A DNA stretch of 64,000 nt from the IMG/VR virus record IMGVR_UViG_3300045988_137040; one strand, 5' to 3'. This document shows, piece after piece, positions 16,583 through 34,439 of this stretch. The stretch is from a virus. The translations under genes were made by a program, and so were the position numbers. Below the pieces are notes generated by a model. That model worked only from the letters and a program-made list of their open reading frames with translations, made no database searches and was not told where the DNA came from. Every line of letters begins with the position of its first letter. The stretch's first letter is position 1.

Positions 16583-17240
16583 CGTTAATCACTTCACCTG
16601 GTTTATCCTTAACCTCGCCGCTACGCGCCTCCATCTTGGCAACTTCATCTTCCACCATCTTGCGCTTGTCGTCCACATAAGCACCATATTTCGCGGCAAT
16701 GCGCTTCGTCTCTTCGTCGTCATAGTTCTCCTTTGTCTCGTCCACCTCCTTGATGTTCGTGACGACCACGGACGGGAGAAAAGAAACCTTATTGATGTCA
16801 GTCTTGTTGTCCTCTGGCTTGTCGAGACCCGCCACTTCAAAGAGACGCTTGCCACCCAGGTTGAGGGCGTTCACGTTGTCAGTCTCCATGCCAATACGCA
16901 ACATCTTCTCCGCGGCGACCTGCACTTTGACCTTAGCCTCGTTACGGCTCATCGGGCTTACGGTGTCACGTATAAACTTAAAGAGCAACACGTCTTTGGT
17001 CAAAGCGTGAGTCTCGGACGGCGCGTCGGCATAGGCGTGACTGTTCTTGATAATCTGCCGAAGCAATCCTTTATAGTCTACGGAGAACGGGTTGCGCAGC
17101 CACTGCCAATAAACGTGATCCACTCTCGCCAACCGTCGTTTCTGTTCTGCACGGAGGGAAAGGTCATCGATTGGCACGCCACTTTGGAAATGGAGCAATG
17201 AGCTTTTCATGAGCTCTGCTGATAATGATGATTCGTACAT
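16545..17240 (-). CDS. putative small terminase subunit or DNA-packaging accessory protein (231 aa)
   Basis: Assigned by position only. It lies immediately upstream of terL and overlaps it. I moved the start to the ATG at 17240 because the longer ORF reads through the octamer-repeat palindrome. Confidence 0.35.
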   Translation of the reverse strand: MYESSLSAELMKSSLLHFQSGVPIDDLSLRAEQKRRLARVDHVYWQWLRNPFSVDYKGLLRQIIKNSHAYADAPSETHALTKDVLLFKFIRDTVSPMSRNEAKVKVQVAAEKMLRIGMETDNVNALNLGGKRLFEVAGLDKPEDNKTDINKVSFLPSVVVTNIKEVDETKENYDDEETKRIAAKYGAYVDDKRKMVEDEVAKMEARSGEVKDKPGEVINDDESRDERRQEQ

Positions 17241-17268: not shown

Positions 17269-17347
17269 TTGCGGTTTCGCAAACATGTGCTTTTGTGCAA
17301 CCGCATGGTCGTGCAACCGCACGGTTGCACGACCATGCGGTTATGCA
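17269..17347. repeat. 8-bp-register GGTT/AACC box array O1, containing a 22-bp-arm palindrome
   Basis: caaccgca tggtcgtg caaccgca cggttgca cgaccatg cggttatg. Positions 17297-17346 form a near-perfect inverted repeat. Confidence 0.85.
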
Positions 17348-17726: not shown

Positions 17727-17790
17727 TACACGGTTGTGCGGTTACACGACTATGCAGCTATGCGGCTATGCGGTTACACGACTATGCGAC
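17727..17790. repeat. 8-bp-register array O2
   Basis: cggttgtg cggttaca cgactatg cagctatg cggctatg cggttaca cgactatg cgactcga. Includes an 18-bp direct repeat. Confidence 0.85.
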
Positions 17791-17800
17791 TCGAATAAGG

Positions 17801-18310
17801 CTAAACGTATAAGCCCTTGTCAACACATAGGTTCAACGGCTCTTCTCTTGTGAACTGTACGAGGACGGCAAACCAGCCGTTTTCCAAAGGTCCAACGGAT
17901 TGATAAGAAACGTCGGTATCGTCGAGGGCGATACGCGCGTAGTCGCCGTCCATCTTCCCCTCGTTTATTTCTTTGTCGTGCTTGTCGAGGAGCCACGCCA
18001 CGAAGTTGCGGGCATGATGCAACGCCTCTTGCTTTGCCACGGCAGCGTCATTGCCGTCTGCCATCTTGTTTGCTCGGACGAAGAAATAAACCGGGTAATT
18101 GAACTCTGGCCTGCGGATTGAGCCCCTGTCGCTCTCTATGGTGCTCTCCATCACGACACATGGCGACTGCATGTTACTTATGCCTTTGGCCATCTCAACC
18201 ACTCCCTTCCACGAGTCGGTGAACATGAACCGTATGTTCCCATTGTTCGGATTATGCAGCATATACATGTACCGTGAACACCAATGCTCTACTATTGAAT
18301 AGAATGTCAT
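17801..18310 (-). CDS. hypothetical protein (169 aa)
   Basis: ATG-initiated ORF in the terminase block. No motif recognised. Confidence 0.55.
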   Translation of the reverse strand: MTFYSIVEHWCSRYMYMLHNPNNGNIRFMFTDSWKGVVEMAKGISNMQSPCVVMESTIESDRGSIRRPEFNYPVYFFVRANKMADGNDAAVAKQEALHHARNFVAWLLDKHDKEINEGKMDGDYARIALDDTDVSYQSVGPLENGWFAVLVQFTREEPLNLCVDKGLYV

Positions 18311-18335: not shown

Positions 18336-18372
18336 TATGCAACCGCATGGTTGTGCGGTTGGGCGGTTGCTT
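18336..18372. repeat. 8-bp-register array O3
   Basis: atgcaaccgcatggttgtgcggttgggcggttgc, with GGTT boxes every 8 bp. Confidence 0.8.
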
Positions 18373-18378
18373 GATTTG

Positions 18379-19440
18379 TTACTTGGGGATTCTGATTTTA
18401 TAAAACGCCGCAGTCTTTTTCATGCTCTCAGAAAGTTCCACGCCGAGCCCTATCAGTTCTTTAGCGTTCTCTTTCCATTGTTTCTTATGTTCAGGCGTGC
18501 CGGCAGGTCTTGGGTCCCGCAGCCACTTTTGGAGGTATTTAACACGTGCGGCTTTTTCCTCGTCGGTATATATCTTCGATGGCGCGCGTTTCTTTTTGTG
18601 TCTTGTTTGACGTTCACCATCCTGTCCCTTGTCAATACTCGGAGTTCGTGTCTCATCCGCCACCTTGCCGTTCTCGTCAAGGACATGCGCCATGCCTAAA
18701 TCATCCACGACAACACGTCCGGTGCTCGCCACTTTATCCCATTCTTTATCGAGCTCCCTTCTGAGGTCACCAATTCCCTTGTCGAGCGCCACGGCAGTTT
18801 TAGCCCATCGCTCCCTTTCTGTAGCCGTGGCTCCAACGTCATCCATGAGCAACCGCATGTTTCCGCGAGCAGTTCCAAGGTCTTTCATCATCTGACCATA
18901 ATTAGCCGCACGCTTCCGCGTCTCCTCTGGTAACAAATGTGCGTATTGGTCAATATGCTTCGGGCGAGGGACAGCCGCCCCAACCTCAGTGACGACAGCG
19001 TTTATTTTTGCGGTTGTGCTGTCTTGCGGTTGCACGACCGTGCAACTTTGCGGTTGTGCAGCCAACGTGGTATCATGCCCTGGTGTTGGCTTTACTCCTG
19101 GTCTTTGCAGACATTGTGTGAGGACATCTATAATACGGTGTATGCTGCGCTTGGCAGCCTTGGTATAAATCATGGTGGGTAGCCACGTGTCGACAATTCC
19201 CGCAAAGGGAGTCATTAGGCGCACGCCCTCGTTGAAGGCGTCTTGGGCGTCGGTAGACCAGCCACCGCACACTTGCTCAACGCTCATTATCCTCGCCGAC
19301 GGTTCATTGGCTTTAGGCAAAAGGATATTGGCTTCCTGCTTCAGCCACTCCCCTACCCTCTTAGAGAGGTCTTGCTTTTCGCCTTCCGTCATGTTGCTCA
19401 CTCTTCTAAGCCACTCGTTAGACGCTATCCGGTATATCAT
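18379..19440 (-). CDS. hypothetical protein (353 aa), containing intragenic octamer array O4
   Basis: Continuous ORF. The C-terminal half is charged and helical. Confidence 0.55.
   Translation of the reverse strand: MIYRIASNEWLRRVSNMTEGEKQDLSKRVGEWLKQEANILLPKANEPSARIMSVEQVCGGWSTDAQDAFNEGVRLMTPFAGIVDTWLPTMIYTKAAKRSIHRIIDVLTQCLQRPGVKPTPGHDTTLAAQPQSCTVVQPQDSTTAKINAVVTEVGAAVPRPKHIDQYAHLLPEETRKRAANYGQMMKDLGTARGNMRLLMDDVGATATERERWAKTAVALDKGIGDLRRELDKEWDKVASTGRVVVDDLGMAHVLDENGKVADETRTPSIDKGQDGERQTRHKKKRAPSKIYTDEEKAARVKYLQKWLRDPRPAGTPEHKKQWKENAKELIGLGVELSESMKKTAAFYKIRIPK
19008..19062. repeat. 8-bp-register array O4, inside the 353-aa CDS
   Basis: cggttgtg ctgtcttg cggttgca cgaccgtg caactttg cggttgtg. 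On the minus strand it encodes ...AAQPQSCTVVQPQDSTT... Confidence 0.8.
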
Positions 19441-19540
19441 ATTGATAGTATATAATTGTTTTATGGGCTAAAGATAATACAGACGTGACAAGTAGGCAAG
19501 GGCAAGGGCAAGAGTTCTCATTATTAAAAATGTTTAATAT

Positions 19541-19688
19541 TATGCGGTTTTGCGGTCGCACGGTTGTGCGGTTGCAGAATTTTCAATAACTTTGCATCGC
19601 TACAACAAAACAAGACCGTTCGATTTTGTGGTTACACAGTCGCACAACCGCATAATTGCAGTAACTTGCGGTCGCACATCTGCGCATA
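19541..19688. promoter_or_regulatory. parA-upstream centromere/operator candidate (arrays O5a 19541-19580 and O5b 19626-19688 flanking a promoter)
   Basis: O5a: atgcggtt ttgcggtc gcacggtt gtgcggtt. O5b: cgattttg tggttaca cagtcgca caaccgca taattgca gtaacttg cggtcgca. Between them lies TTGT - 19 nt - TAacTTTG (19563-19594). Confidence 0.55.
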
Positions 19689-19714
19689 TTCATATTTTAT
19701 ATAAAGCTACATTT

Positions 19715-20581
19715 ATGAGTAAGGTAAAATCTACACATCTCCGGCACATAGTTGCCGTGAGCAACAACAAGGGTGGGGCAGGGAAGACCACCACGGTATT
19801 GAACCTCGCTGCGGCAATCGCGCGCAAAGGCTACCACGTGCTTGTCATCGACACTGACCCTCAATGCAACCTCTCGCTCTCTGTAGGATGGGACACGACA
19901 AGAGAGGGCACGCGAACCAAACCTGGCGAGCCGACTATCTTCAATGCGATATGCCTCGGACAGAACATCCCCGTCTATCGCAATGAGACAGGGTTGTACT
20001 ATACGCCGTCATCTCCGCGCATGGAAGACGCCGACATCCACTTGAACAGCTCTGAGGTGACAGACCCTGTGCGTGTGTTGAAGATGCTCTTCGCTGAACC
20101 TATAGACGACCACACGGGCGAGGGCTTGAAAGAGTGGGAAAGCAGCTTCGACTTCATCTTCATCGACACACAGCCTGCCATGAGCCGAGTCACGGTCAAC
20201 GTGATATGCGCGGCCACGGGTATCATCATACCAGTTGAACTGGAGCCGTTGGCCGTTGACGGCTATGTCAAGACCATCGGTAAAATCATGAAGATTAAAA
20301 AGGTGAGCAATCCATCCCTGCAAATCCACGGTATCCTGCTCACCAAGAAAGACCGACGACTGGTAAGCGCACGGAGTTTCGAGGAACAACTGCGTGAGGA
20401 GGGAGACGTTTTCGAGACGACCATCAGCCGCACCAACGATGTGCCCAACTCGCAAGACCGGGACTACGACGAACGGCCCGGTATCTGTCACGACATCTTC
20501 AGCTACCAAAAAGGCAGAGGACGTGCCAAGGAAGATTTCACCAACCTTGCCGAAGAGTATATCAAGAAGTGGGGAAAGTAA
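19715..20581 (+). CDS. parA: ParA/Soj-family partition ATPase
   Basis: Deviant Walker A VAVSNNKGGAGKTTT and VLVIDTDPQCNLS. The start is set at the ATG at 19715; the listed ORF begins at a TTG inside the repeat array. Confidence 0.85.
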   Translation: MSKVKSTHLRHIVAVSNNKGGAGKTTTVLNLAAAIARKGYHVLVIDTDPQCNLSLSVGWDTTREGTRTKPGEPTIFNAICLGQNIPVYRNETGLYYTPSSPRMEDADIHLNSSEVTDPVRVLKMLFAEPIDDHTGEGLKEWESSFDFIFIDTQPAMSRVTVNVICAATGIIIPVELEPLAVDGYVKTIGKIMKIKKVSNPSLQIHGILLTKKDRRLVSARSFEEQLREEGDVFETTISRTNDVPNSQDRDYDERPGICHDIFSYQKGRGRAKEDFTNLAEEYIKKWGK

Positions 20582-20740
20582 CACAACCGCACGACCATGC
20601 AACTGCATAACTGCAATAATATGCAACCACTTAACTACATAACCGCATAGTTGAGCAGTTGGGCAGTTACTAAAACACACGTATGTGCAACTATGTGGTT
20701 GCATAGTTGTGTGGTCGCACAGATAAGCAACCGCAAAAAA
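20581..20740. repeat. 8-bp-register array O6 (20 consecutive octamers) between parA and the small downstream gene
   Basis: acacAACC gcacGACC atgcAACT gcatAACT gcaaTAAT atgcAACC acttAACT acatAACC gcatAGTT gagcAGTT gggcAGTT ... atgtGGTT gcatAGTT gtgtGGTC ... aagcAACC. Box orientation flips midway. Confidence 0.85.
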
Positions 20741-20748
20741 CATAAGAT

Positions 20749-21123
20749 ATGAACAAGAAAGAAAAACCGCAGCGCAGATCGCTAAACGCAAGAATAGACG
20801 CAGAGTTGGCAAGCGCAGAAAACATACCGTTGGCAGGAATGACCAGAGAGCCAGCAAAACCAGTGAAAACTCCATCGCAGAGCTCAACTTTGGGGCGGGG
20901 TGGGGGAGAGCCTATAGCAACCAAGAAGGCAACGACCATCATGCCCAAGGATGTGTTCGTGGCCCTGCAACGCTATTGCATCAACAAGGACACGCCCAAG
21001 CACCGTGCGCTCTATTTCTTCATCCTTGACGGACTGCATGCCGCTGGGGAAATCAATGATGCCGACTATCAACGCTTCCGCGATATGGCCGAGCAGATAA
21101 CTACGACATACGAAAAGAAGTAA
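20749..21123 (+). CDS. putative centromere-binding protein (ParG/RHH-like, 124 aa)
   Basis: Position directly after parA. The N-terminal half looks basic and disordered. The C-terminal TTIMPKDVFVALQRYCINKD...LYFFILDGL is compatible with a ribbon-helix-helix fold. Inference only. Confidence 0.4.
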   Translation: MNKKEKPQRRSLNARIDAELASAENIPLAGMTREPAKPVKTPSQSSTLGRGGGEPIATKKATTIMPKDVFVALQRYCINKDTPKHRALYFFILDGLHAAGEINDADYQRFRDMAEQITTTYEKK

Positions 21124-21136
21124 ACAATCAAGACAA

Positions 21137-21571
21137 ATGAAACAAGAAAAATTATTTACTATTCTCATGCTCCTCTTCCTGAGCATGATGGCCATCAGCT
21201 TCGCCGCGTGCAGCAGCAGCGACGACGAAGAGGACGACGGATCGCAACGTTACAAGAATCAAATCATCGGAACATGGTATTGCGACCGCGTTTCGTATGT
21301 GTTCGAGTCGGACGGCACCGGATGGTCTAACAGCGACAGCTGGGACGTTATTGCCCACTTCAAGTACACCATCGAGGGGCAAGGCGTGCAGATGCATCAG
21401 TTCACCTACGTTAACACCACCACTGGCAGTCTTTGGTACGGCGAGGACCAATCCGCTTCCTACAATCCTGAGCAGAACACCATGCGCATCGAAGGACGTG
21501 TCTTCACGCGTCAGAAGCCGACACACAAACCGCCCACAGAGGAGCCGGTGGACACCGTGGTGACGGAGTAG
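21137..21571 (+). CDS. lipoprotein (144 aa)
   Basis: Signal peptide plus lipobox MKQEKLFTILMLLFLSMMAISFAAC followed by SSSDDEEDD. Followed by an intrinsic terminator. Confidence 0.65.
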   Translation: MKQEKLFTILMLLFLSMMAISFAACSSSDDEEDDGSQRYKNQIIGTWYCDRVSYVFESDGTGWSNSDSWDVIAHFKYTIEGQGVQMHQFTYVNTTTGSLWYGEDQSASYNPEQNTMRIEGRVFTRQKPTHKPPTEEPVDTVVTE

Positions 21572-21607
21572 GGTAGGGCGTCCATCATCACACCCGACAC
21601 TTCAACG

Positions 21608-21637
21608 GCAAGGAGCGTGGCTCCTTGCCTTTTTTTG
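21608..21637 (+). terminator. intrinsic terminator after the par-lipoprotein operon
   Basis: GCAAGGAGC-gtg-GCTCCTTGC followed by CTTTTTTTG. Confidence 0.7.
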
Positions 21638-21894
21638 TTTGGCACTCACATCTATAGCCGACACTTCCGTTTTTGTCGGGATTTTCAACTTGCTAAATAC
21701 TTCTAACTCAAAGGTTTACAAATTTAGCTATTTCTAATTATTCTTTGAAGTTACTAATTTGTCGGTAAAGCTATAAATCTGTCATCAAAGTTGTGTTTTT
21801 CCGACCGACCTAATTATTAGGCAGTTACGGCTATATATTTGGATTATACTATATCGACCACTCTATATATCAACAACTTATGGACTTTGCCAAA

Positions 21895-22284
21895 TTGAGG
21901 ACAGATTAACAGCTAAAAGAAAAAATCAAAAATACTCGATTCTTATTATATAATTATTGGTATAGATAGTATATAGTATATAAGGCTTTGTAACTTATTG
22001 ATAATCAAATAATAGCAAGGTGAATTGAGGACAGATTAATAGCTTTTTGAGGACAGATTAATAGGTTTCGGGGGACAGATTAATAGCTTTTTGAGGACGG
22101 ATTAATAGGTATTATCTATGAATTGAGGACAAATTAATAGCTTTGGAAACTCCGACAAATAGGTAACTCCATATTATTGAGGACAATTTTATAGCTTTAT
22201 CAATTATTTAAGGAGTGCTAAAATTCAAAACTATCTGAAAATAAACACGTAAAGCCTTGTGTAATTGAGGACAAATTTATAACT
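21895..22284 (+). promoter_or_regulatory. iteron-type replication origin (8 iterons plus an AT-rich unwinding region)
   Basis: Eight copies of about 20 bp, consensus TTGAGGACAGATTAATAGCT, at 21895, 22025, 22047, 22069, 22091, 22123, 22177 and 22265. The central four are spaced exactly 22 bp apart. A very AT-rich tract lies at about 21925-22015. The last iteron overlaps a TAacTTTG -7 box (22280-22287) upstream of rep. Confidence 0.85.
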
Positions 22285-22350
22285 TTGCCAACAAATGGTA
22301 AAAGACATGGCTACAACTGTCCGAGCTACCACACATTAAAAGCTACAAAC

Positions 22351-23562
22351 ATGGCAAGAAAATCACGAAAGGCTGAGCAGCTCAAGCAAGAGTTGTTGAG
22401 CACAGTGCAGCAGCAGGAGCTGATTACTCAGCCTGTTACCTTCGCTTACATCAAAGGTGAGATGTCAGTGATGCAGGCACGTATTCAGACAATCATCATG
22501 GAGAAGCTGCAACTGCGCATCGCAAAGTTCTTAAAGGAGAGGGCGCATGATGGCTTTGCTGGATGCTTATTCTCCGATGAAGATTTCGCCCCGCTCAAGG
22601 GGGAAAATGACAAGAGCAGGTATCTCACGTTCAGTGTGAAATACTCAGAGCTCGGCATACCGTCGGCAAATTACCGCTACGTCTCGGACGCTGCGAGAGC
22701 CATGCAGGGCTCTTTGGTATATGAAAAAAGCATTGTTGACGACGGAAAGACTTATAAGCGATATATCGTTGCTTTTCCCGTAGTCGATGTCCCGGACGAG
22801 AGCCTTGGAGAGCGACGCACTGACATCAAGCTCCACATGACAGAGAGCACTGCAAAATATCTCTTCCGTATTACGCCCTATCACCGATACCTTAAAGACG
22901 CGGTGTTTCTATTCAACAGCGGATATACGGGCAGGATATATCTGCTTATCAATGCCAATAAGCAGTTGGGTACATGGAATATTGACTACGACGAGCTGCG
23001 CAAGATACTCCTTACCACCTATGACAAAGAAAATGATAAATATGTCTGTGACAAATACCCTGATATTAGGGATTTCAAGCGCCGTGTCCTCGAACCGGCC
23101 CGCAAGGAAATCATGGAGGTCGCAAAACGTATTGACTGCACTTTCGACTACGAAATAAAAAAGAAGCGTGGCTCGAATGAGAACATCAAGATAGTTTTCC
23201 ATATCCACCTCACAGACCTCGGAAAGAACATCAAGCAGGGGCAGCTGGAAAGCCAGGAGGCCGTGACGCTGCGCAATGCGCTGATGAACCTGCATATCAC
23301 CATCACCGACGCAAACAGGTTGATGAAGCAAGTCTCCGCCGAGCAATATCCAGCTCTAACCAACAAGGCAAGAGAACTGATGAAATACTACCAAGACGTC
23401 AGAGAGGGGAGGGCAAAGGGAGTCTCAATCAAGGACTACCGAGCCCATGCCGTTAAGTCCCTTCAAAACATTATCTTAGGAAAAGGCAACTTCTTCAGCG
23501 AAGCCGTCGAGATAAATGACAAGCCTATTTCAGAACCCCAAAAATCATTAAACGAATGGTAA
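22351..23562 (+). CDS. rep: plasmid-type replication initiator (Rep_3/RepB-like, iteron-binding)
   Basis: Lies directly downstream of the iterons. NSGYTGRIYLLI......GTWNIDYDELRKIL.....YPDIRDFKRRVLEPARKEI matches the second winged-helix pattern of the Rep_3 family (S.Y.iRlYell...G...i...eLr..L....Y..f.dfkrrVlepa.kEi). Confidence 0.75.
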   Translation: MARKSRKAEQLKQELLSTVQQQELITQPVTFAYIKGEMSVMQARIQTIIMEKLQLRIAKFLKERAHDGFAGCLFSDEDFAPLKGENDKSRYLTFSVKYSELGIPSANYRYVSDAARAMQGSLVYEKSIVDDGKTYKRYIVAFPVVDVPDESLGERRTDIKLHMTESTAKYLFRITPYHRYLKDAVFLFNSGYTGRIYLLINANKQLGTWNIDYDELRKILLTTYDKENDKYVCDKYPDIRDFKRRVLEPARKEIMEVAKRIDCTFDYEIKKKRGSNENIKIVFHIHLTDLGKNIKQGQLESQEAVTLRNALMNLHITITDANRLMKQVSAEQYPALTNKARELMKYYQDVREGRAKGVSIKDYRAHAVKSLQNIILGKGNFFSEAVEINDKPISEPQKSLNEW

Positions 23563-24586: not shown

Positions 24587-25504
24587 CTATGTTCCCATGC
24601 ACACCGTGCGTTTTGCGGTTGTGCGACCGCATAGCTTTGCGGTTATCGTCTCACGCACGAGTTTAGCGCGTGATTCCCAATCCGCGATATTCTCGTTGTC
24701 ATTGAGACAGACGACGCCAGCCATCGGGTCGTTGATGAGCGCAGGGAGGTCGGCGGTGGGCGTGTCCTCGTCGGCGTACTGCATACGCGGGGAATGGTCG
24801 ATGTCAAGACCCGCGAAGTGCTGATAGAGCAAGTAGATGTACTGGTTGAACGAATGCTCGGTGCGAACGAGAGGACTCATCCACCGCTCTATCTCCTCGC
24901 CATGCCGTTGCCAAACCGCCTCGCAAGCAGAGCGGAGGATGGGCGCATAGGAATGGCCCGTCGTCAGCCAGGTGCGCACATAGTGTCTACCAAAAGGTCT
25001 GCCAATCATGTTCTGCTGATTCAGACATTTTCGATGAAAGATATTCGGCACATCGGGAAAGAGTTTTTCTTTGAAGTGGACACACGGACGACCGTCAAGA
25101 AAGAAGTCGGACGGCTGTAAAGGTGAGAGCGGGAACATATCGTCGTTGGCATAGACAAACCTTTCCGACAGCCCCGGTATGCGGCCTAAGAACATCTCAA
25201 TGCAGGGCGAGGAAAAGCAAGGAAGATACTTCTCCGGAATGAAGTCACGATGAAAGACGATATGCACCTTATCGTAGCGTGACATCCACGGCTGCACCTG
25301 ACTCTCACGGGCGAGAAGGATATGGATGGTACGGAGCCATGGCATATACTTCATGCAACAACGAACCAACAACTCTTCCGTCCCCCATGAACGGAAGCGG
25401 ACGTTGGCACAAGCGTCATCGCCGTGGTAACGGCGATAATCGCTGAGCCAGTCCGCATCCTGGGGAAACACCATCGGAACTACTAAATCAATATTTTTCT
25501 CCAT
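24587..25504 (-). CDS. Stealth-family protein (putative sugar-1-phosphate transferase, capsule-modification type)
   Basis: IDLVVPMVFPQDADW (CR1-like). RFRSWGTEELLVRCCMKYMPWLRTIHIL and FIPEKYLPCFSSPCIEMFLGRIPGLSERFVYANDDMF match my recollection of Stealth CR2/CR3 (RF.d..ELrYSlRS....PW.r.i.iv ... lP.FnS.aIE..l..IpgLsE.F.Y.NDD.f). Confidence 0.55.
   Translation of the reverse strand: MEKNIDLVVPMVFPQDADWLSDYRRYHGDDACANVRFRSWGTEELLVRCCMKYMPWLRTIHILLARESQVQPWMSRYDKVHIVFHRDFIPEKYLPCFSSPCIEMFLGRIPGLSERFVYANDDMFPLSPLQPSDFFLDGRPCVHFKEKLFPDVPNIFHRKCLNQQNMIGRPFGRHYVRTWLTTGHSYAPILRSACEAVWQRHGEEIERWMSPLVRTEHSFNQYIYLLYQHFAGLDIDHSPRMQYADEDTPTADLPALINDPMAGVVCLNDNENIADWESRAKLVRETITAKLCGRTTAKRTVCMGT
24605..24647. 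repeat. 8-bp-register array O7, at the 3' end of the Stealth gene
   Basis: cgttttg cggttgtg cgaccgca tagctttg cggttatc. Confidence 0.75.
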
Positions 25505-28500
25505 ATCTTCCTACATTTTTCTTGCCCGTGTCATAACTATCTATTATTCCACCTTTGCCATAGACATTAAAGACACCCTTGATACCATTGCTGACAGCTT
25601 TCTCCATAACCTCGCTGTTACGGTCAAGACTTGCTTGAATGGCCGCAAGCATATCGGTGAATGCAGGTTGTGCTGAGCCAGCAGAGCCTTGTGCGCTCGC
25701 GCCATCGGCAAATTCATCGAGGTTACCGTCGGCAAAGTTGCTCATGCCACCGCCACGCTGACGGGTAGCACGCACACGGCCTCCATTGTAAAGCGTTTGG
25801 ATTGCCTGCCAAATGCCCGTATCGTTCATCTGCAACTTGCGGGTGGTATTGGCGTCGATAATCGCCTCACGGCCACGCTCACCGACAAGGTGGAACTCTG
25901 GGCCGTTGGTGAGGTGAGTAGTTGGGTTCGCACCCATATATCGCGCGCGATACGTTTTACCATCAGCGGCATCCACGTTGTATCGCTGCCCAGGGGTAAG
26001 CGACGACGGGTTCGTGAACTCATTGACGTTACCCTCGGCATAGGTCAGCATACCCGTGGAGAGACGACCGGCGGAAACGTTAGCACCAGTTGCTTGAGCG
26101 ATTTGCGATTTACTCTTTGACGCTTGACTTACGGCCAAGGCCATCAAACCGCCCATTAGAGCAGTCACGGCGGCATAAGTTGCTATTGCAGCCGGATATG
26201 GCATCTCACCCAACAACTTGCCGAGGATTCCAGGCATCTGCACCGTTTGCTTAGCTTGTTGCTGGAACAAGTCGGTTGTCAGCATTGTTATGGCTGCTTG
26301 GCCAGCGGCTTGCACAGCGAACATCTGAAATTTCTGCGAGGTGCTCAAGTTGTTATTACTCATTGCTTGGTAGGCGGTGCCGTAAAGATTGGCGGCTTGT
26401 GTCATCTTGGCGAAAGCACTGCGGGTGCCTTCTTCGTTTGCCTTGTTAACGCTTTTAGTGGAAGCAATGATTTTATTGTTATTGGCGATTTGTACCTTGG
26501 CAGACCCGTTGGAAGCGGCTATCTGCGCGTCGGCAATTTGTTGGCTCTGTTCGGTGATGTTCTGCACTTGCTCATCTGAGGTGCCCGTCGACCACGACTT
26601 GCCGTTCCAGCCATCTTGCGTTTCGTCAGGCCATGGAGACTGCCACTGGTCGGCCGGCTCTTTTGCGCTGTTTGCTTGTGTGTTGTCAAAAGGATTCTCA
26701 TTCACCGGTAACCCCGCACGTTTACGACGGGCGCGTAGCCATGTGGATGGATTATTCTCATCTTGATAAGGGGTTTCCACGTCGTCAGGAGAAACAGGGT
26801 TGATAGGGTAGACTATGTTACCCAACGCGTCCACAGCCATGCCCTCAAGATTTCGTTCAAGGTTCGTGAAATCGTTACTCTCCACGGGGCGCGTAGCATA
26901 CAGGGCTTCGGTGTTGGCAATCAACGCCGAGGTGTTGTTGTCCACGGCTTGGTTTTGCATGGCCGCGTTCATCCAGTCGGTGATTTGTTCGTTTATCTTA
27001 CTGTTGACGTCGTCCATCACCTTCTTCCACGCGTCAGCCGTGGCGTTCTTCTGTTCAATCTCAAGCTGTCGCTTTAAGGCGTCCTCGCCATCGAGACTCT
27101 CATAATGAGACACGGCTTCTTTCGTGCCCGCATGCTCGGTTATTATATAAGTGCCCCCGGCACTGCCCTCACCCGTTAGGCGCATCTTGGCGAGGCTGTT
27201 GTAATAGTCGGCCTCGCCCGTCACACTCGCTTCAAACACACTCTTAGCGGAACTGGACAGCAGCGAGCCCCATTCCCTCAAAGACGTATAAAGGCGGTTC
27301 TCGCTTTCCTCCGCCTTTGCAGCGAGGTCGGCGCGCTGCTTGGCGAGGTCGGCTTCCTCTTCAGAGAGAGTGAGGTTCAGGCTCATCTTGGCGTGCTTGG
27401 CATCAAGACGGAGCTGTTCGGCTTTATCCATTTCACCCTGTTCCTCTTTCAGTTTAGCTTGCCTTTCAAGGTCGTCTATGCGCTGTTGTCCTGTCTTACG
27501 CACGAGGGCGTAATAATGATCTTGCATATTCAGCTGAATCTGCATCTGCTTGATGGCGAGACGGTCAGCGACTCGCCCGGAGGCTGGCCCTGCATTGATA
27601 AGCGAGTTGGCACGCGAGACGCTGCTTTGCTCCATGCCCAACGCCGAGGACGCTTTCTCATACAGTTGCTTCATGCTTATGTCACCGACGACAGTAGTGT
27701 CGTTCCAAGTAATCTCCACCTGTTTTTTTACCTCCGACGCCTCTCTCTTGATAGCGTCTTGAACAGTATCATAAACCGTGCGAAGCTGGGCGAGCAACGC
27801 CTCCTTCATGTCCTCGGCATGTTCGTTGTTAAGGATGGCGTCGGCCCAATCGCCAAAGCCACTCACCCGCATGTTGTTGACAAGCCGCTCCCATGTCATG
27901 TTGTAAGCATCCTCACTCTGTTGGAGGAGGAACGTGAGTCGAGGGTTGCGCTGTGTGCCATATTCGGCATTAAGGTTCTGCATCTCGTCACTGCCATAAC
28001 CCTTGCCGGAGAGCAGAATCTTTTCCTTGCGCTTGTCAAGGTCGGTATAGAGCAATCCCATCTTTTCCACGTTTTGACGCAGATTCTTGACAATGCCGTC
28101 AAAAGGCCGTTCCTTGCTGACGATTTCCTCAATGGCGTCGAGCTGCTTTTTCACGGCGGCACGCATCTTCAAGAAATCCTGTTCAACACCCTTGTCGAGG
28201 TCGCCATAAATCTTGCGCATAGCAGGAGCACTCTTGTCGCCTACCTGCTTAATCAAGTTCACCGTGGTACCGATATTCGACTTGATGAACGCCACGCTGT
28301 CACCTGTGCGGTCGGCAAGAATCTCATAGATGGTGTCGGCTTCCTGCTGCGTCACCTCCTTGCTGTTCTTAGAGTAGAGCTGTTGCAGTTCAGCGCGCTT
28401 CTGACGATACACCTGTTCGTTCTGCAACATCCGCCGCCAACCCTCTTCCTCGGTAATCTCGCCACTGTTCTGCGCATCCTCAATCTGCGACTTCTGTTCG

Positions 28501-31500
28501 GTGTAGTAGGCATCGAGCTCGTCCATATAGTAAGCCATGTCGTCCTTGACGAGCTTACTGATGGACTTCGCCCGCTTGTGTGCCTGCTTCGGGTCCTGCC
28601 AGTTGCCAGTGTTGGACAGCGCACGGGAGTGGAGCACCTGCTGGATAGCCAACCGCTGCTTGTCATACCATGCCATCACGCTGTCAGCATCTTTCTTCAC
28701 TGCTCCTTTCTTGATAGCTGCCATCAATGCCGGATCCTCACTCAGCACGCTCTCCACATCGGTGTCACCCTGGAGAGCCAGCACGAACTCGTTCATCTGC
28801 TTGCGACGGGCAACGAGATCCTTGCCGTTCATCTTCGACCAGTTGGTGGATGCGGCATCGGGGTTAGCACCCCATGGGTTATTCTTGTCGGTGCCGCCAC
28901 CACCACCGCCGCTGATACCACCTCCGCCGCCAGTACCACTGTCGTTGCCATTCCCGTTTCCTTTTTTACCAAGAGAGTTCGCAAGGTCGCTTTCGGCAAT
29001 TTGGTTTCCGAAGCTGTCTTGCAATGCCTGTAATGCGTCGTTGGCCTCACGGTTTTTGTTTTGCAGACTTCTCAACTTTGATTTCATTCCCAAAATTTCC
29101 ATCGACGCAGCAGCCCGTGCTTGTACGCTTACGGGGGCAGCGGTTCCTTGCGAAGTTTGTGGTCTCGCTTGCATAGCACCAGCTGCTTCCTTACTCCGGT
29201 CTTTAATGGCTTTCTCTTGCTTGGTAATTTCTACCGTTGTATGAGCTACCTCTTTACCCAAAGACTGCATTTCTTCTTTAGCTCCCTCAACAAGAGCCTT
29301 TTCCTTGAGTTTATTAATATAGGCTGTTAATAACGCCGTATTTCGCTTATAGGCTTTCCCCTCTCCATTCACGGTAGCAATATAGTTAGGTACGGCTTTC
29401 TGTATCTCAAGGATAGCCGCCTTCCTTTCTTTCACCGACCTTGTGTTGTCATTAACGATTTTTCTCAGATTCTCCAATCGGCCACTTTCTTCCGCCGCTT
29501 TTACTTCTGCTTGGTCTTGGACTTTATTTAGCTCTTTCTGAGCTCTTGTCATCGAAGTAAGTTGCCTAACATACTTTATCGCAGTCATCGTCAGGAATAC
29601 GACAGCCATTGCTACAGCTGCGATTACATTCGCCTTTTGCGCTGCGTTCAGCCTACGCCATGCAGTTGTAAATAGATTCGTCTTAGCTGCCGCGGTAGCA
29701 TTAGCATTTCCGAGCGCAACGGTTGAAGTAGTCTCGAAGGCTTTAGCTGTGGCATCAGCGGTTGACGCAACAGTAGAGGCTTTCGTAGTAAAGATGAGTT
29801 TACCCAAATACATGATACCAGAGCCGATAGCTTCAGTCCACTTCGCTTTCAGCATCGCGAGGTAAACAACCGTATATCGTAAGGCTCTGCCAATAGGCCC
29901 ATCATCGGTAATGAAATTGACCAATACACGTAAAGCGCTGATGATACCGCCAAAGAACCGCTGAGAGGAATCATTAACGAAAAACTCTTGAAGCTGATTC
30001 TTTAAACGCTCCCATCTGGCAGCAGTTGTATCGTTCATCTTGTCATACTCCTGCTGAATGGCAATATTATCGGCATAGGCTTCTTTAGCCGTACCGAGGT
30101 TTTTACGCAATTCGCCAACATTCTGGGAAAGACCGGCGAATACAATACCTGCACGAGCACCCTGCTGATCGAGTTCCTTCATAATCTCGCCCATGCCGCC
30201 CGTACCTAATAGTTTTTCGATACCGTCTGGATTCAAATTCTGGTCGTGGATATGTTGCAGAATCATCAGAATGACATCCATAGCCTTACCACTATCATAT
30301 AAATCACGGATGGTCTTTGGCGTAACACCAATAGCCCGCGCAATATCAAACGCATGGTTCTTGATAGCCGGTATCATTCTGGAGATTGCCGTGGCCGCCA
30401 TTTCGGTACCCATACCGAGCTCGTCCACGGTGGCACCGAGGGCGGCTACTTGGTCCACGGTGATGCCACTCTGCGCACCCACGGCACCGACACGTTTCAC
30501 AAAGTCGGCAACAGGCTGGGCGGCGGCAGCAGTGGTGGCACGCAGACGGTCGATGGTAGACGCGATCTTCTCCATGGCCACGGCGGTAGCCGACGAACCC
30601 TCTACGGTACCGTCCTCCATCTGCTTGCGAATCTTATTTACTTCTCCCGTTGCCAAAGCCACTTTCATCATTTCCGTAGCACCTTCCTCACCCAACTCGG
30701 GCAGAGCAACGTGCAACATATTGGCAGCCTCGGTGAAGCCACGCACGTCCTCCTCGGTATGCAAACCGAGCTGACCGGCGGCGGCGGCCATATCCATAAG
30801 GTCTTGAATAGGGGTACGTGTATCGAGTTTGGCAAGATTATCAGACAACCGTCCTACCTGGTCCGCCGTGAATCCTGTTGTCTTTCGCACCTCACCCATC
30901 TTGTCGGAGAGGGTCATCATGTCGCCCATGGCACCACTAATCTTCTGGATGGCCACGGCGGTACCCATATACAGCGTGATATAGGTCTTCAGTCGTGACA
31001 CAGCCTTCTCAAACGCACTCGTGGTACCCTTGGATTCATTGCCGAGATTCTTCATCTCCAAATCGGCATTGCGCACCTTCTCGGCCAGCTCGTCATACGC
31101 CTTCTGACCCTCCTTGGTGGTACGGCTCATGTCGTTCAACGCCTTGCGCCCCTGCTCCACGGCCATCTTCAGCTCGTTGAAGGAACGACCCTTGGGAGCG
31201 TCGAGAACAGCCTGCATCTCCTTGGTGACACCTCCAACACGTTTTTCTTCGAGGGCGACACCGTCGAGGGCGCGACGGAGTTGCTCGTATCTATGCGAGC
31301 CTTTTTCAGTAGTCGCCAATGTTTCTTCCAGTACCTGCTTGGCTTGTTTGAGTTGTTCGGGTGTACCCTTAAATATGTTGGCAGCACCCTGCAATCCCAT
31401 ACGGAAAGCGTCACGCAACGACATTATCGGCCCAGCCGCACCTTGTGCAGCCTGTCCCGTTTGTGCCAAATACCCATTGATTTCGCGGATGACATCTGCG

Positions 31501-34439
31501 TTGGTCTGTTGCGGCAGCGAGTCGCGGTATTTCTTCAATGCCTCGGCTTGCGTGCGTATCTCTTCGGCGGACGCATCGCCCGTACCATTACGGAAGAAGC
31601 TAAGCGCCTTACCACCGGCATCCTCCATCATCAGTTTTTGTGCGAGATGTACTTTGTCGAGGTTGGCTTTATATTGTGACAGACTTGACGCTGCTGTCTT
31701 AGGATCATCAATCAGTCGCTTCCAATAGCTCTCCTGCGCCTTCAACGCCGATGCCGTGAGACTGCTGCTGTTTTGCAGTTGCGACTCCATAAGTTGATTA
31801 GCTTTGGCACGCTCGTCAGCCGCTTTCTTCACAGCTTCACGCTCTCTCACGGCTGACCGCTCAGCTTCGAGGCCATACTGCTTCAAGTGCTGCTCGGCAT
31901 TGACAATCTGCTGAGCCAATTTCTTTGCAGCAGGGTCTGCGGTGTTATAGGTCTGAATGAGTTGTTTGCCGGCTTCGATGGCCTGGCGTATCTCGCTCTC
32001 GCTCAACTGGCCGAGGTTGCCACCGAGTTTCTGCACCGCCATCTCATTGGAGAGTTGGCGGCGCTCGGCTTCCTCCTGCTTAACCTTATCGAGGTTGACT
32101 TGGTACTGTTTCAGTTCGTTGCTACCCTTGGCGGCACTGTCCACTTGCCCCTGCCAAAACTTCTTCGTCTCGGCCAAAGCAGAATCGGAGAGGGTCGTCA
32201 GCTTCTGCATCTGACCCTCAAACTTGACAACGCTGTCCACCTGCGCCCACTCTTGCAGATACTTCTTACCCTGTTCTACAAGACTGTTGTAGTGGTTCCA
32301 CTCCTTAGAGCCGTGGGCTTGCGCGTCACGCAGTTCCTCCATCGCTTTCACAGCCTGGCGGATTTCAGCGTCACCATAGTTTTCGGGCTTTGCCATCACG
32401 CGCATACCCCATGATGCCTTGTGGGTCTGCTCTACCTGCGCAATCTTTTCAAGGTTGGCAGCAGCTTGCTTGTATTCATCCGATGTGCGCTCAGCACTCT
32501 CCATCTGCGATTGCCAAAACTTCTTGGTCTCGGCAAGGGTGGAATCTGAGAGAGTCATCAGAGTGGTCATGCGGGAGGTCATCGTAGCCTTCAGCTGTTC
32601 CTCTTTCAGTTTGGCTTTGTCGGCCTCGATGCCATATTGCTTCAGATATTCCTCGGCAGTGAAGATGGCTTTCGATAAACTGGTATAAGCATCGCTGTCA
32701 GCCTGTAAGGTCTTTTGATATTCACGGGCAGCGTCGATGGCCTTGCGTATCTCGCCCTCGCCCATACCTTTCAGTGCGGACGTACCACCCATGAGTTTGT
32801 TGGCCGAGGCGAGATTCTGCGCCTGCACCAACTTACGCTGACGCTCTACGATGGCATCGAGGTTGGTCTTGTAAGTGTTGTAAGCCTTACTGCCACGCTC
32901 AGCACCATCCATCTGTGCCTGCCAGAACTTACGGGTTTCCTCCAACGCACCGTCGGACAATTTGGAGAGATGGCTCATGCGGTCGTTCATAGCCTGCATC
33001 TGTTCGACAGCCATACGGGAACTGCGCTGACCCTCCAGTCCGAACTCCTTGACGTACTTCTCGGCACGCATGATATTATTCACAAGGTCCTTGTAGGCTT
33101 GATCGCCCGGCTTCATAGACTGAGCAAGCTGCTTGGCGGCAGCGATGGAGGCTTGCAGCTCTTTCTCCGACAATAGTCCGAGATTTTTCCGTTCCAACTG
33201 CTTGGCGCTCTTTTGCAACTGGAGTGTGTTGAGACGCTGCTGTTCATTGGCAAGTGCTTTCAGATTGCGCTCCGCCTCCTTATAGGCCGTACTGCCACGC
33301 TTCGAGCCATCGAGCTGCTCCTGCCAAAAGCGTTGTGTCTCGGTGAACGCTCCACGTGAGAGTTTGGTGATATTGCTCATGCGGTCCTGCATGAGTTTAT
33401 ACTTATCGGCAGCCTGTAGTGCGGCATCGGCTTGCTGACGGGCAGCACGGGCACCCTCCACGCCGACGGTCTTTAGATACGACTCGGCATTGACAATCTG
33501 CGCGGCCAACGTCTGCGCCTGCTTGCTCGACGTGCCATAGACTTGTATCAGTTCCTTGGCGCTGGCAATGGCCTGGCGGATGTCGCCCTCGCTCTGACGA
33601 CCGAGGTTGCCACCGAGTACTTTTTGTACACGACGCTCCTGCTCAGCACGAATCTCTTTCATGGCTTGCTTGTTCTCACGCATGATGCTCGTGCTGACCT
33701 TTCCCGCGCGGTTGGTCTGCTCCAACTCCGTGTACATCGTGCGCAACGTTTCGCTCGACACGCGCTTGGTGTCGGTGATATGCTTACGCACAAACTCATA
33801 GCTGCCACCCATCTTCTTCAGCTCATACTCAAGAGTGGCCACCTGCTCAACCGTACGCTTATAACCTCTGTCCTTTTCAGACAGGACATTGAGAAGTTCC
33901 TTCTGCTGCTGTAACTCCTCGGTAAGTGCCTGGCGAGATACCTTTCCACCCTTGCTGATTGTGTCAAGCACTTTCTGCGTGTCAGTTTGTATGGACGCAT
34001 AATATTGCTGGGTAGCGTCCATAAGGGCTGTCATTTCCTCTCTGTCTTTCTTGTAACTCGCTGAAGTACGGTCAAGTCTCGATCTCGTCAGTTTGGCAGC
34101 ATTATAAACTGCCTTCTGAAAAGCTGCGTTCATCGTAGCCAACGAACCATCGTTGAACGCCTTGATGCCTTGATCGAGAACGCGCATACCCTTAGCGAGC
34201 TCACCGTAAGCCTTGTTGAACTGACGGGCTTGTTTGGTTGCCGCATCCAAATTATCTCGCAGTTTTTGGATTTGACTCGACGGAAGATTGGCTTCTATTC
34301 CATCCTTCAACTTTTTTTGGAGATCCTTGACCTGCTTGTTGCATCTTTCACTCTCTTGACGCATAGACTCTATGGCGGCATTGGCATTTCGCGCGTTTGC
34401 CTGAAAGTCAATATGGATAATATCGTATCTCTGTGCCAT
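25488..34439 (-). CDS. tail tape measure protein (2983 aa)
   Basis: Very long coiled-coil-rich ORF. TMP core-like segment TGFTADQVGRLSDNLAKLDTRTPIQDLMDMAAAAGQLGLHTEEDVRGFTEAANML. Hydrophobic segments and a glycine tract (GNGNGNDSGTGGGGGISGGGGGG). Confidence 0.75.
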   Translation of the reverse strand: MAQRYDIIHIDFQANARNANAAIESMRQESERCNKQVKDLQKKLKDGIEANLPSSQIQKLRDNLDAATKQARQFNKAYGELAKGMRVLDQGIKAFNDGSLATMNAAFQKAVYNAAKLTRSRLDRTSASYKKDREEMTALMDATQQYYASIQTDTQKVLDTISKGGKVSRQALTEELQQQKELLNVLSEKDRGYKRTVEQVATLEYELKKMGGSYEFVRKHITDTKRVSSETLRTMYTELEQTNRAGKVSTSIMRENKQAMKEIRAEQERRVQKVLGGNLGRQSEGDIRQAIASAKELIQVYGTSSKQAQTLAAQIVNAESYLKTVGVEGARAARQQADAALQAADKYKLMQDRMSNITKLSRGAFTETQRFWQEQLDGSKRGSTAYKEAERNLKALANEQQRLNTLQLQKSAKQLERKNLGLLSEKELQASIAAAKQLAQSMKPGDQAYKDLVNNIMRAEKYVKEFGLEGQRSSRMAVEQMQAMNDRMSHLSKLSDGALEETRKFWQAQMDGAERGSKAYNTYKTNLDAIVERQRKLVQAQNLASANKLMGGTSALKGMGEGEIRKAIDAAREYQKTLQADSDAYTSLSKAIFTAEEYLKQYGIEADKAKLKEEQLKATMTSRMTTLMTLSDSTLAETKKFWQSQMESAERTSDEYKQAAANLEKIAQVEQTHKASWGMRVMAKPENYGDAEIRQAVKAMEELRDAQAHGSKEWNHYNSLVEQGKKYLQEWAQVDSVVKFEGQMQKLTTLSDSALAETKKFWQGQVDSAAKGSNELKQYQVNLDKVKQEEAERRQLSNEMAVQKLGGNLGQLSESEIRQAIEAGKQLIQTYNTADPAAKKLAQQIVNAEQHLKQYGLEAERSAVREREAVKKAADERAKANQLMESQLQNSSSLTASALKAQESYWKRLIDDPKTAASSLSQYKANLDKVHLAQKLMMEDAGGKALSFFRNGTGDASAEEIRTQAEALKKYRDSLPQQTNADVIREINGYLAQTGQAAQGAAGPIMSLRDAFRMGLQGAANIFKGTPEQLKQAKQVLEETLATTEKGSHRYEQLRRALDGVALEEKRVGGVTKEMQAVLDAPKGRSFNELKMAVEQGRKALNDMSRTTKEGQKAYDELAEKVRNADLEMKNLGNESKGTTSAFEKAVSRLKTYITLYMGTAVAIQKISGAMGDMMTLSDKMGEVRKTTGFTADQVGRLSDNLAKLDTRTPIQDLMDMAAAAGQLGLHTEEDVRGFTEAANMLHVALPELGEEGATEMMKVALATGEVNKIRKQMEDGTVEGSSATAVAMEKIASTIDRLRATTAAAAQPVADFVKRVGAVGAQSGITVDQVAALGATVDELGMGTEMAATAISRMIPAIKNHAFDIARAIGVTPKTIRDLYDSGKAMDVILMILQHIHDQNLNPDGIEKLLGTGGMGEIMKELDQQGARAGIVFAGLSQNVGELRKNLGTAKEAYADNIAIQQEYDKMNDTTAARWERLKNQLQEFFVNDSSQRFFGGIISALRVLVNFITDDGPIGRALRYTVVYLAMLKAKWTEAIGSGIMYLGKLIFTTKASTVASTADATAKAFETTSTVALGNANATAAAKTNLFTTAWRRLNAAQKANVIAAVAMAVVFLTMTAIKYVRQLTSMTRAQKELNKVQDQAEVKAAEESGRLENLRKIVNDNTRSVKERKAAILEIQKAVPNYIATVNGEGKAYKRNTALLTAYINKLKEKALVEGAKEEMQSLGKEVAHTTVEITKQEKAIKDRSKEAAGAMQARPQTSQGTAAPVSVQARAAASMEILGMKSKLRSLQNKNREANDALQALQDSFGNQIAESDLANSLGKKGNGNGNDSGTGGGGGISGGGGGGTDKNNPWGANPDAASTNWSKMNGKDLVARRKQMNEFVLALQGDTDVESVLSEDPALMAAIKKGAVKKDADSVMAWYDKQRLAIQQVLHSRALSNTGNWQDPKQAHKRAKSISKLVKDDMAYYMDELDAYYTEQKSQIEDAQNSGEITEEEGWRRMLQNEQVYRQKRAELQQLYSKNSKEVTQQEADTIYEILADRTGDSVAFIKSNIGTTVNLIKQVGDKSAPAMRKIYGDLDKGVEQDFLKMRAAVKKQLDAIEEIVSKERPFDGIVKNLRQNVEKMGLLYTDLDKRKEKILLSGKGYGSDEMQNLNAEYGTQRNPRLTFLLQQSEDAYNMTWERLVNNMRVSGFGDWADAILNNEHAEDMKEALLAQLRTVYDTVQDAIKREASEVKKQVEITWNDTTVVGDISMKQLYEKASSALGMEQSSVSRANSLINAGPASGRVADRLAIKQMQIQLNMQDHYYALVRKTGQQRIDDLERQAKLKEEQGEMDKAEQLRLDAKHAKMSLNLTLSEEEADLAKQRADLAAKAEESENRLYTSLREWGSLLSSSAKSVFEASVTGEADYYNSLAKMRLTGEGSAGGTYIITEHAGTKEAVSHYESLDGEDALKRQLEIEQKNATADAWKKVMDDVNSKINEQITDWMNAAMQNQAVDNNTSALIANTEALYATRPVESNDFTNLERNLEGMAVDALGNIVYPINPVSPDDVETPYQDENNPSTWLRARRKRAGLPVNENPFDNTQANSAKEPADQWQSPWPDETQDGWNGKSWSTGTSDEQVQNITEQSQQIADAQIAASNGSAKVQIANNNKIIASTKSVNKANEEGTRSAFAKMTQAANLYGTAYQAMSNNNLSTSQKFQMFAVQAAGQAAITMLTTDLFQQQAKQTVQMPGILGKLLGEMPYPAAIATYAAVTALMGGLMALAVSQASKSKSQIAQATGANVSAGRLSTGMLTYAEGNVNEFTNPSSLTPGQRYNVDAADGKTYRARYMGANPTTHLTNGPEFHLVGERGREAIIDANTTRKLQMNDTGIWQAIQTLYNGGRVRATRQRGGGMSNFADGNLDEFADGASAQGSAGSAQPAFTDMLAAIQASLDRNSEVMEKAVSNGIKGVFNVYGKGGIIDSYDTGKKNVGRYGEKY
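31650..33632 (-). repeat. five tandem repeats of about 120-136 aa inside the tape measure protein
   Basis: Recurrent pattern GNLG..SE.EIRQAI.A.K.L......AE.YLK.YG.E......LS..AL.ET.KFWQ.Q.D.A.RGS..Y...NL, with the FWQ/YWK motif at aa 371, 505, 641, 761 and 905. Confidence 0.75.

Follow-up and report, generated by a model that had tools for sequence, protein, structure and literature searches.

The 64,000-nucleotide (nt) stretch of viral DNA analysed here (IMG/VR record IMGVR_UViG_3300045988_137040, hereafter the window) carries a parA gene on its + strand, followed directly by a gene for a 124-amino-acid (aa) protein, and repeat arrays in 8-bp register lie both upstream of parA and between the two genes (Table 1). 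A sequence-only reading of this region had proposed that the 124-aa protein is the cognate centromere-binding protein, and that the arrays are both its centromere and the autoregulatory operator of the par genes, in the manner of plasmid TP228. Relatives of the small protein were drawn from Prevotellaceae metagenome-assembled genome (MAG) contigs and from IMG/VR viral contigs of 117-134 kb, and their loci are referred to below by L number.

The identity of parA, which that reading had already named, is confirmed by Pfam, whose matches begin at residue 11 of the product, and by solved structures: among the latter, T. thermophilus Soj comes closest (1.2e-25, spanning most of the protein), ParF of TP228 matches over the P-loop region only (residues 12-54, 3.4e-13) and δ of pSM19035 (2oze) matches weakly (3.5e-8). 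A deviant Walker A motif, KGGAGKT, of the form KGGxGK[ST], lies at residues 19-25, and Pfam revealed no helix-turn-helix family and no N-terminal or other extra DNA-binding domain. A deviant Walker A ParA lacking an N-terminal DNA-binding domain, with a small gene directly downstream, is the arrangement of type Ib partition loci.

Table 1 Features of the parA locus and its surroundings, in window coordinates.
Feature	Position	Strand	Details
Six-unit array	17299..17346	.	AACC, GGTC, AACC, GGTT, GACC, GGTT; between 117-aa gene and next gene; lone GGTT at 17273
Eight-unit array	17732..17795	.	GGTT, GGTT, GACT, AGCT, GGCT, GGTT, GACT, GACT; between 169-aa and 117-aa genes; kept in L012
Four-unit array	18341..18372	.	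AACC, GGTT, GGTT, GGTT; fills gap between 353-aa and 169-aa genes; kept in L012
Array within gene	19012..19059	.	GGTT, (TGTC), GGTT, GACC, AACT, GGTT; inside 353-aa gene (18379-19440, minus strand)
TATCTTTA, putative divergent promoter of minus-strand operon	19469..19476	-	7/8 match to TAnnTTTG; 29 nt before the operon's first start codon
Putative operator array	19546..19577	+	four direct 8-bp units: GGTT ttgc, GGTC gcac, GGTT gtgc, GGTT gcag
TAACTTTG, putative parA promoter	19587..19594	+	match to Bacteroidota -7 consensus TAnnTTTG
Leader array	19614..19677	+	mixed orientation, from promoter to parA start; boxes GACC 19614, GGTT 19630, AGTC 19638, AACC 19646, AACT 19663, GGTC 19670
parA	19715..20581	+	288 aa, Soj-like; Pfam AAA_31 3.6e-34, CbiA 1.9e-20
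Main array	20585..20736	+	19 consecutive 8-bp units, 15 with canonical box; AACC-type first, then AGTT/GGTT-type
Gene for 124-aa putative centromere-binding adaptor	20749..21123	+	starts 167 bp after parA
DUF5640-like lipoprotein gene	21137-21571
22-bp iterons, TTGAGGACAGATTAATAGCTTT	22025-22108		3.8 tandem copies, just before the Rep3-type initiator gene
Rep3-type initiator gene	22285-23562		followed by a DnaA_N/AAA protein gene

Arrays around parA and in the neighbouring operon

The largest array fills most of the 167-bp spacer between the parA stop and the small gene (20582-20748). Each unit consists of a 4-bp RRYY box (GGTT/AACC and close variants) and a 4-bp spacer of alternating purines and pyrimidines, mostly GCAY or RTGC. 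An oriented logo of 40 units reads YRYRY-RGTY-RYRYR, and at the purine/pyrimidine level the array is directionless, box orientation being set by the central GT or AC only. The sequence-only reading had cut 160 bp into 20 consecutive octamers; cutting by eight holds, but yields 19 units. It had also assigned AACC, AACT or GACC to all of the first eight, which is correct for seven (AACC, GACC, AACT, AACT, TAAT, AACC, AACT, AACC; unit 5 departs). The subsequent flip to AGTT/GGTT/GGTC that it described is seen in units 9-11 (all AGTT) and 15-17 (GGTT, AGTT, GGTC), but unit 14 (AACT) is unflipped, unit 19 returns to AACC, and units 12-13 and 18 are degenerate. The order from AACC-type to AGTT/GGTT-type boxes gives the array an overall dyad symmetry.

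Modulo 8, every RACY/RGTY box of the spacer (15/15) falls in the same register. Autocorrelation of the boxes at lags 8, 16, 24, 32 and 40 amounts to 11, 10, 9, 8 and 9, a sum of 47, and is zero at every other lag; across 1000 dinucleotide shuffles the same sum was 0.23±0.50, with a maximum of 4. Box-based autocorrelation was preferred to plain Fourier power at period 8, as the latter, computed from all four bases, missed the main array owing to the changes of box orientation along that array. Across the whole 64-kb window, runs with at least four of five boxes in register fall into 6 clusters, none of which lies outside 17.3-20.7 kb; shuffles give 0.17 clusters. When this run statistic was computed for periods 5 to 13, period 8 gave 17 matches, period 9 gave one and all others, including period 7, gave none. 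The 8-bp register claimed for the DNA after parA thus lies far above a shuffled background.

Upstream of parA, two further arrays bracket a promoter-like element, as previously suggested. TAnnTTTG is the Bacteroidota -7 promoter consensus, and from 19011 to 21700, TAACTTTG is the only place where the + strand matches it exactly; the equivalent position in relatives is occupied by TATCTTTG. The last box of the four-unit direct array ends 13 nt ahead of this -7 box, and the array therefore covers the expected -33 region, which is what an autoregulatory operator would look like in sequence. A direct array of 4-5 units is kept in position and orientation, always 13 nt before TAnnTTTG, in the window and in L012, L009, L010, L001 and L003, and this base-exact placement persists even in relatives with a small protein that shares no more than 58-73% identity with the window's. 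Between promoter and parA lies the leader array, in which the AACT box at 19663 is one base off register; L001, L003, L009, L010 and L011 have longer equivalents. For the upstream region as a whole, the lag-8 to lag-40 autocorrelation sum is 15, versus 0.47±0.73 in shuffles.

Two other motifs occur in the same upstream DNA. GGCAAG is repeated three times in tandem inside a conserved GTCAAGGGCAA motif (19495-19512), between the divergent promoters and upstream of the -7-like box of the minus strand, with equivalents in L005, L007, L008, L009 and L010; its role may be that of a -33 region or of a binding site for a different regulator. Relatives all have two copies of the motif (A)GCTACA(ACAAA), the first a few bases past the -7 box and the second 3-5 nt upstream of the parA start codon (19599-19610 and 19703-19710 in the window; also in the leaders of L001, L003, L005 and L007), and the leader arrays of the window's lineage are placed between both copies.

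Four more arrays of the same type, overlooked by the sequence-only reading, lie at 17.3-19.1 kb, three in intergenic gaps and one in a coding region, where it falls in the hypervariable low-complexity linker of a 353-aa protein. They belong to a minus-strand operon that runs from 19440 down to the gene of a 639-aa protein that weakly matches large terminase; in relatives, the counterparts of this operon code for lysis enzymes. We infer that TATCTTTA may be the divergent promoter of this operon, judging from its match to the consensus; relatives carry TATCTTTG or TATATTTG at the equivalent place. No exact TAnnTTTG stands beside the operon arrays, and these are therefore not obvious promoter operators. 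The 97%-identical L012 keeps the operon arrays, that at 17299-17346 being ~52 bp shorter there, and its main array has exactly one 8-bp unit more than the window's (L012 9579-9620 versus window 20585-20625). From these length differences, the arrays appear to change by whole units. L012 6295-6350 is the counterpart of window 17273-17346, and array length is thus polymorphic between 97%-identical genomes. The operon arrays are absent from the more distant relatives L001, L003 and L009.

The 124-aa protein and its relatives

The 124-aa protein comprises a conserved basic peptide (residues 1-25), a disordered linker (26-54) and an invariant C-terminal domain (55-124) made of a TKKATTIMPK strand and three helices. 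Its ~130 homologues, all uncharacterised, repeat this pattern: the basic N-terminus is conserved (consensus KKExPRRRSLNxRIDAELA), the low-complexity linker is variable, and the C-terminal 65 residues are nearly invariant (TKKATTIMPKEVF.ALQRYC...DTPKHRALY.FILDGLHAAG). In AlphaFold models the linker is disordered and the C-terminal domain forms an extended segment and three helices, with a predicted local distance difference test (pLDDT) score above 90. This layout of basic tail, disordered linker and small C-terminal domain supports, at the level of prediction, a resemblance to ParG-like adaptors.

A ribbon-helix-helix fold had been expected of this protein, and structure comparison leans that way. 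The best small Foldseek matches are indeed ribbon-helix-helix proteins, with target template modelling (TM) scores of 0.7-0.8 (Arc 0.74-0.76; CopA(SO) antitoxin 0.71-0.78), and further matches include AtaR, CdbA, VapB, viral CopG, HicB, NikA and PutA-type proteins, but none of them is significant (E 0.2-5). An hhalign comparison places helices A and B in register with those of Arc (E=0.0037, 8.9% probability). Searches of Pfam and PHROGs with the 124-aa protein returned nothing, nor did sequence and profile searches of solved structures, and a profile search of 1.84 billion representatives found 16 clusters only, with no bridge to a known ribbon-helix-helix family. In two of these 16 clusters the C-terminal domain is fused to HSDR_N-like nuclease domains, which fits a DNA-binding module. 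These restriction-endonuclease-like domains stand N-terminal to the adaptor domain in P0125 and P0127, proteins of 252-327 aa.

We then compared the DNA beside each homologue. At least 18 loci have a full-length homologue next to a 288-aa ParA, and in all of them the parA stop is directly followed by GGTT/AACC arrays that keep the 8-bp register and range from 4-5 to 20 units. The order of parA followed by the small gene is kept in L001-L004, L009-L022, L025 and L026. Loci with a different protein after parA have different arrays, mostly still of period 8 or 24. In L147, where ParA is 76% identical and the N-terminal peptide is shared but the C-terminal domain is different, no GGTT array follows parA within a contig of only 1.5 kb, and ATTATTCG 8-bp repeats are found instead; the basic N-terminal peptide thus accompanies the ParA type despite a different C-terminal domain. 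In L005, L007 and L008, the gene after a ParA of only 35-47% identity codes for a paralogous small protein, again built of tail, linker and domain, and the arrays have other boxes, still in period 8 or 24: GTAC or GAAC boxes with AAAC spacers in L005, 24-bp units in L007 and GCAATA-type units in L008. These swaps, in L147 on the one hand and L005, L007 and L008 on the other, indicate that array type follows the DNA-binding domain of the protein encoded after parA.

Three paralogous groups of small proteins share one scaffold, with TKKATTIMPK, GALCYLPK and RLPNPxIPxEEY as their respective signatures, and occur in tandem after parA (L005 5280-6300, L007 8854-10291, L008 9153-10303). Among the tandem genes, the copy adjoining parA has the basic N-terminus, while all copies of TKKATTIMPK type and the RLPNP-type copy of L008 begin with KKxYxVTExT. 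Domains and tails of these small proteins seem to be exchanged as modules.

A putative type Ib partition system and its alternatives

Taken together, the arrays are maintained across related loci and vary in step with the adaptor's C-terminal domain, and we consider it likely that they are the centromere and operator of a type Ib ParA partition locus in a Prevotella phage-plasmid, read by the 124-aa protein. The proposal of the sequence-only reading, of a cognate binder whose arrays would serve partition and autoregulation alike, is supported by the sequence comparisons and the structure models. Dimers of the 124-aa protein would bind one per box through the ribbon-helix-helix-like C-terminal domain and coat the arrays cooperatively, while the basic N-terminal peptide KKEKPQRRSLNARIDAELA, held on its disordered linker, would contact and stimulate ParA, such that plasmid copies are segregated over the nucleoid. 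The four-unit array over the -33 region would act as the autoregulatory operator, and the leader array together with the long array between parA and the adaptor gene would form the main centromere. The arrays of the minus-strand operon may enlarge the partition complex, or the same protein may affect that operon.

Several observations weigh against this interpretation. The main one comes from L005-L008, L023 and L024, in which a 96-100-aa homologue further downstream has an identical TKKATTIMPK strand, with the N-terminus KKxYxVTExT instead of the basic peptide: within the 5-20 kb examined per genome, GGTT arrays are absent, the sole exception being a weak run (4 of 5, against a chance expectation of 0.095) between genes of L007. 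The C-terminal domain of the window's protein has zero significant fold matches, its model is a monomer in which the beta-ribbon itself is not visible, and Pfam ribbon-helix-helix families gave no match at E≤10 to any of 42 members of the adaptor family. With one ParG sequence, hhalign aligned only 9 columns at E=0.15, and with one ω sequence it produced no alignment; there was no Pfam match for either. Furthermore, the arrays extend beyond the par locus, and the main array, being strongly self-complementary and placed within the operon, could play a role at the RNA level.

It could be posited that the arrays are true protein sites with another reader, be it ParA, a host nucleoid protein or another phage regulator, the 124-aa protein being only a cofactor of ParA or an unrelated regulator. 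The genomes in which an identical predicted DNA-reading strand occurs without GGTT arrays in the regions examined would accord with this, as would the non-significant fold assignment. However, array type tracks the C-terminal domain after parA and not ParA or the N-terminal peptide, as seen in L147, ParA has no extra DNA-binding domain, and both gene order and the tail-linker-domain layout match known adaptors; we give this possibility little credence.

Self-complementarity raises a second alternative, namely that the spacer array downstream of parA works chiefly at the RNA level, as a long imperfect hairpin in the parA-adaptor transcript, and that this hairpin fixes the ratio of ParA to adaptor by way of processing, stability, attenuation or translation control, with periodicity as a secondary trait. 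The spacer of the window folds at -49.7 kcal/mol (z=-2.8 to -3.7), and the equivalent spacers of six relatives have z values of -1.9 to -6.1, yet inverted boxes create dyad symmetry in any case. The upstream operator consists of direct repeats, which cannot form a hairpin; relatives maintain the boxes and the 8-bp register but not the pairing partners (L011 has mostly direct repeats), and indels comprise whole 8-bp units. No Rfam family matched, nor does a terminator-like T run follow the array, and a mainly RNA-based function appears to us quite improbable.

The spread of the arrays could also be viewed as that of slippage-prone, functionless intergenic repeats, or of replication iterons. Their length does differ between 97%-identical genomes, and copies sit in several intergenic gaps and once within a gene. 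Against such an origin, their position relative to the promoter is base-exact in relatives as divergent as those described above, and the same box type persists over many loci, which leaves this explanation with hardly any plausibility. A role as Rep iterons was ruled out, as a separate 22-bp array serves the Rep3-type initiator.

Returning to the partition interpretation, a wider version of it would have one ribbon-helix-helix-like protein link partition to control of the neighbouring phage operon, with arrays seeded through that operon in the window's lineage, and would have three paralogous DNA-binding domains, two kinds of N-terminal peptide and matching types of 8-bp array exchanged as modules over the phage family at large. 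We regard this wider version as rather unlikely; were it true, the module exchange would amount to natural swap experiments on the evolution of centromere specificity.

Comparison with known partition systems

In TP228, parH/OF consists of 4-bp ACTC boxes with 4-bp spacers, in direct and inverted orientation, and serves as both operator and centromere (PMC3130281), which agrees with what the sequence-only reading had stated of this plasmid. The window shares with it degenerate 4-bp boxes and 4-bp spacers that make an 8-bp period, in both orientations; about 20 boxes that would double as operator and centromere; a small adaptor predicted to have a flexible N-terminal tail and a C-terminal DNA-binding domain; and a ParA-type ATPase without a DNA-binding domain of its own. 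It differs in its box (GGTT/AACC rather than ACTC), in its spacers (RYRY with GC, mostly GCAY or RTGC, rather than AT-rich), and in its arrangement, as its largest array separates parA from the adaptor gene instead of standing upstream, and the operon next to it contains others. Its Soj-like ATPase has 288 aa, whereas the ParF subgroup has about 206 aa, and the adaptor lacks sequence similarity to ParG. On our best reading, the locus would work like ParF-ParG-parH without being a sequence member of that family.

The δ-ω system of the Firmicutes plasmid pSM19035 uses a ribbon-helix-helix adaptor that binds one dimer per repeat to short contiguous direct and inverted repeats; its arrays stand at several places and are both centromeres and operators, and δ has about 284-298 aa. 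Arrays at several sites and a ParA of similar size recall the window, although the repeats of pSM19035 are 7-bp heptads as opposed to 8-bp units, the adaptor here lacks sequence similarity to ω, and δ is only a weak match to ParA. In the phage-plasmid N15, sopC centromere sites are dispersed, and partition is of type Ia (SopA/SopB), with a helix-turn-helix ParB and palindromic sites. The likeness to N15 lies in a phage-plasmid with putative centromere sites scattered rather than gathered in one site by the par operon, but the extra arrays here all fall within 3.5 kb of par and in one lineage only.

To our knowledge, little work exists on how Bacteroidota plasmids and phage-plasmids are partitioned, and a literature search found no paper describing this element. 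Judged by sequence, the 124-aa protein would represent a new adaptor family, unconnected in sequence with ParG, with ω and with all curated ribbon-helix-helix families. As this putative new family uses the 4-bp box and 8-bp geometry of TP228, such geometry may be a recurrent solution for coating DNA with dimers of this kind. The locus offers a clear and testable example of a likely partition system in Prevotellaceae, and studies of specificity and incompatibility could draw on relatives that combine the same ParA and tail with another domain and arrays, or that have the same domain but no tail. For annotation, the locus marks the related viral contigs of 117-134 kb as likely plasmid-prophages.

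The element, its replication genes and other repeats

Matches to virion proteins elsewhere in the window and the terminase-like match, together with plasmid replication and partition genes, make the element look like a phage that carries plasmid genes, and it is best read as a Prevotellaceae phage-plasmid of roughly 120-135 kb. A blastn search with a 7.5-kb region returned no match in either a phage or a plasmid collection, and when a 14-base array pattern was run against viral contigs, the matches listed were mostly to unrelated contigs.

Downstream of the adaptor gene, the 22-bp iterons are likely the plasmid origin, distinct from the 8-bp arrays. Single copies of the iteron lie near 21945, 22120, 22170 and 22260. 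Transposase genes of IS605 OrfB/TnpB type and IS66 type adjoin the par-rep region of relatives (L002 7117-8394, L010 8091-9422, L009 11741-13198). In L007, intergenic regions hold 12-bp AAAATTTTACTT repeats in inverted sets (6068-6218, 16770-16968 and 18129-18278), which are absent from the par region of the window.

Further along the window, two very large minus-strand open reading frames, of 2983 and 1642 aa, occupy 25488-34439 and 44306-49234, and a 78-bp tandem repeat of ~5 copies (40753-41162) lies inside a gene for a 786-aa virion protein.

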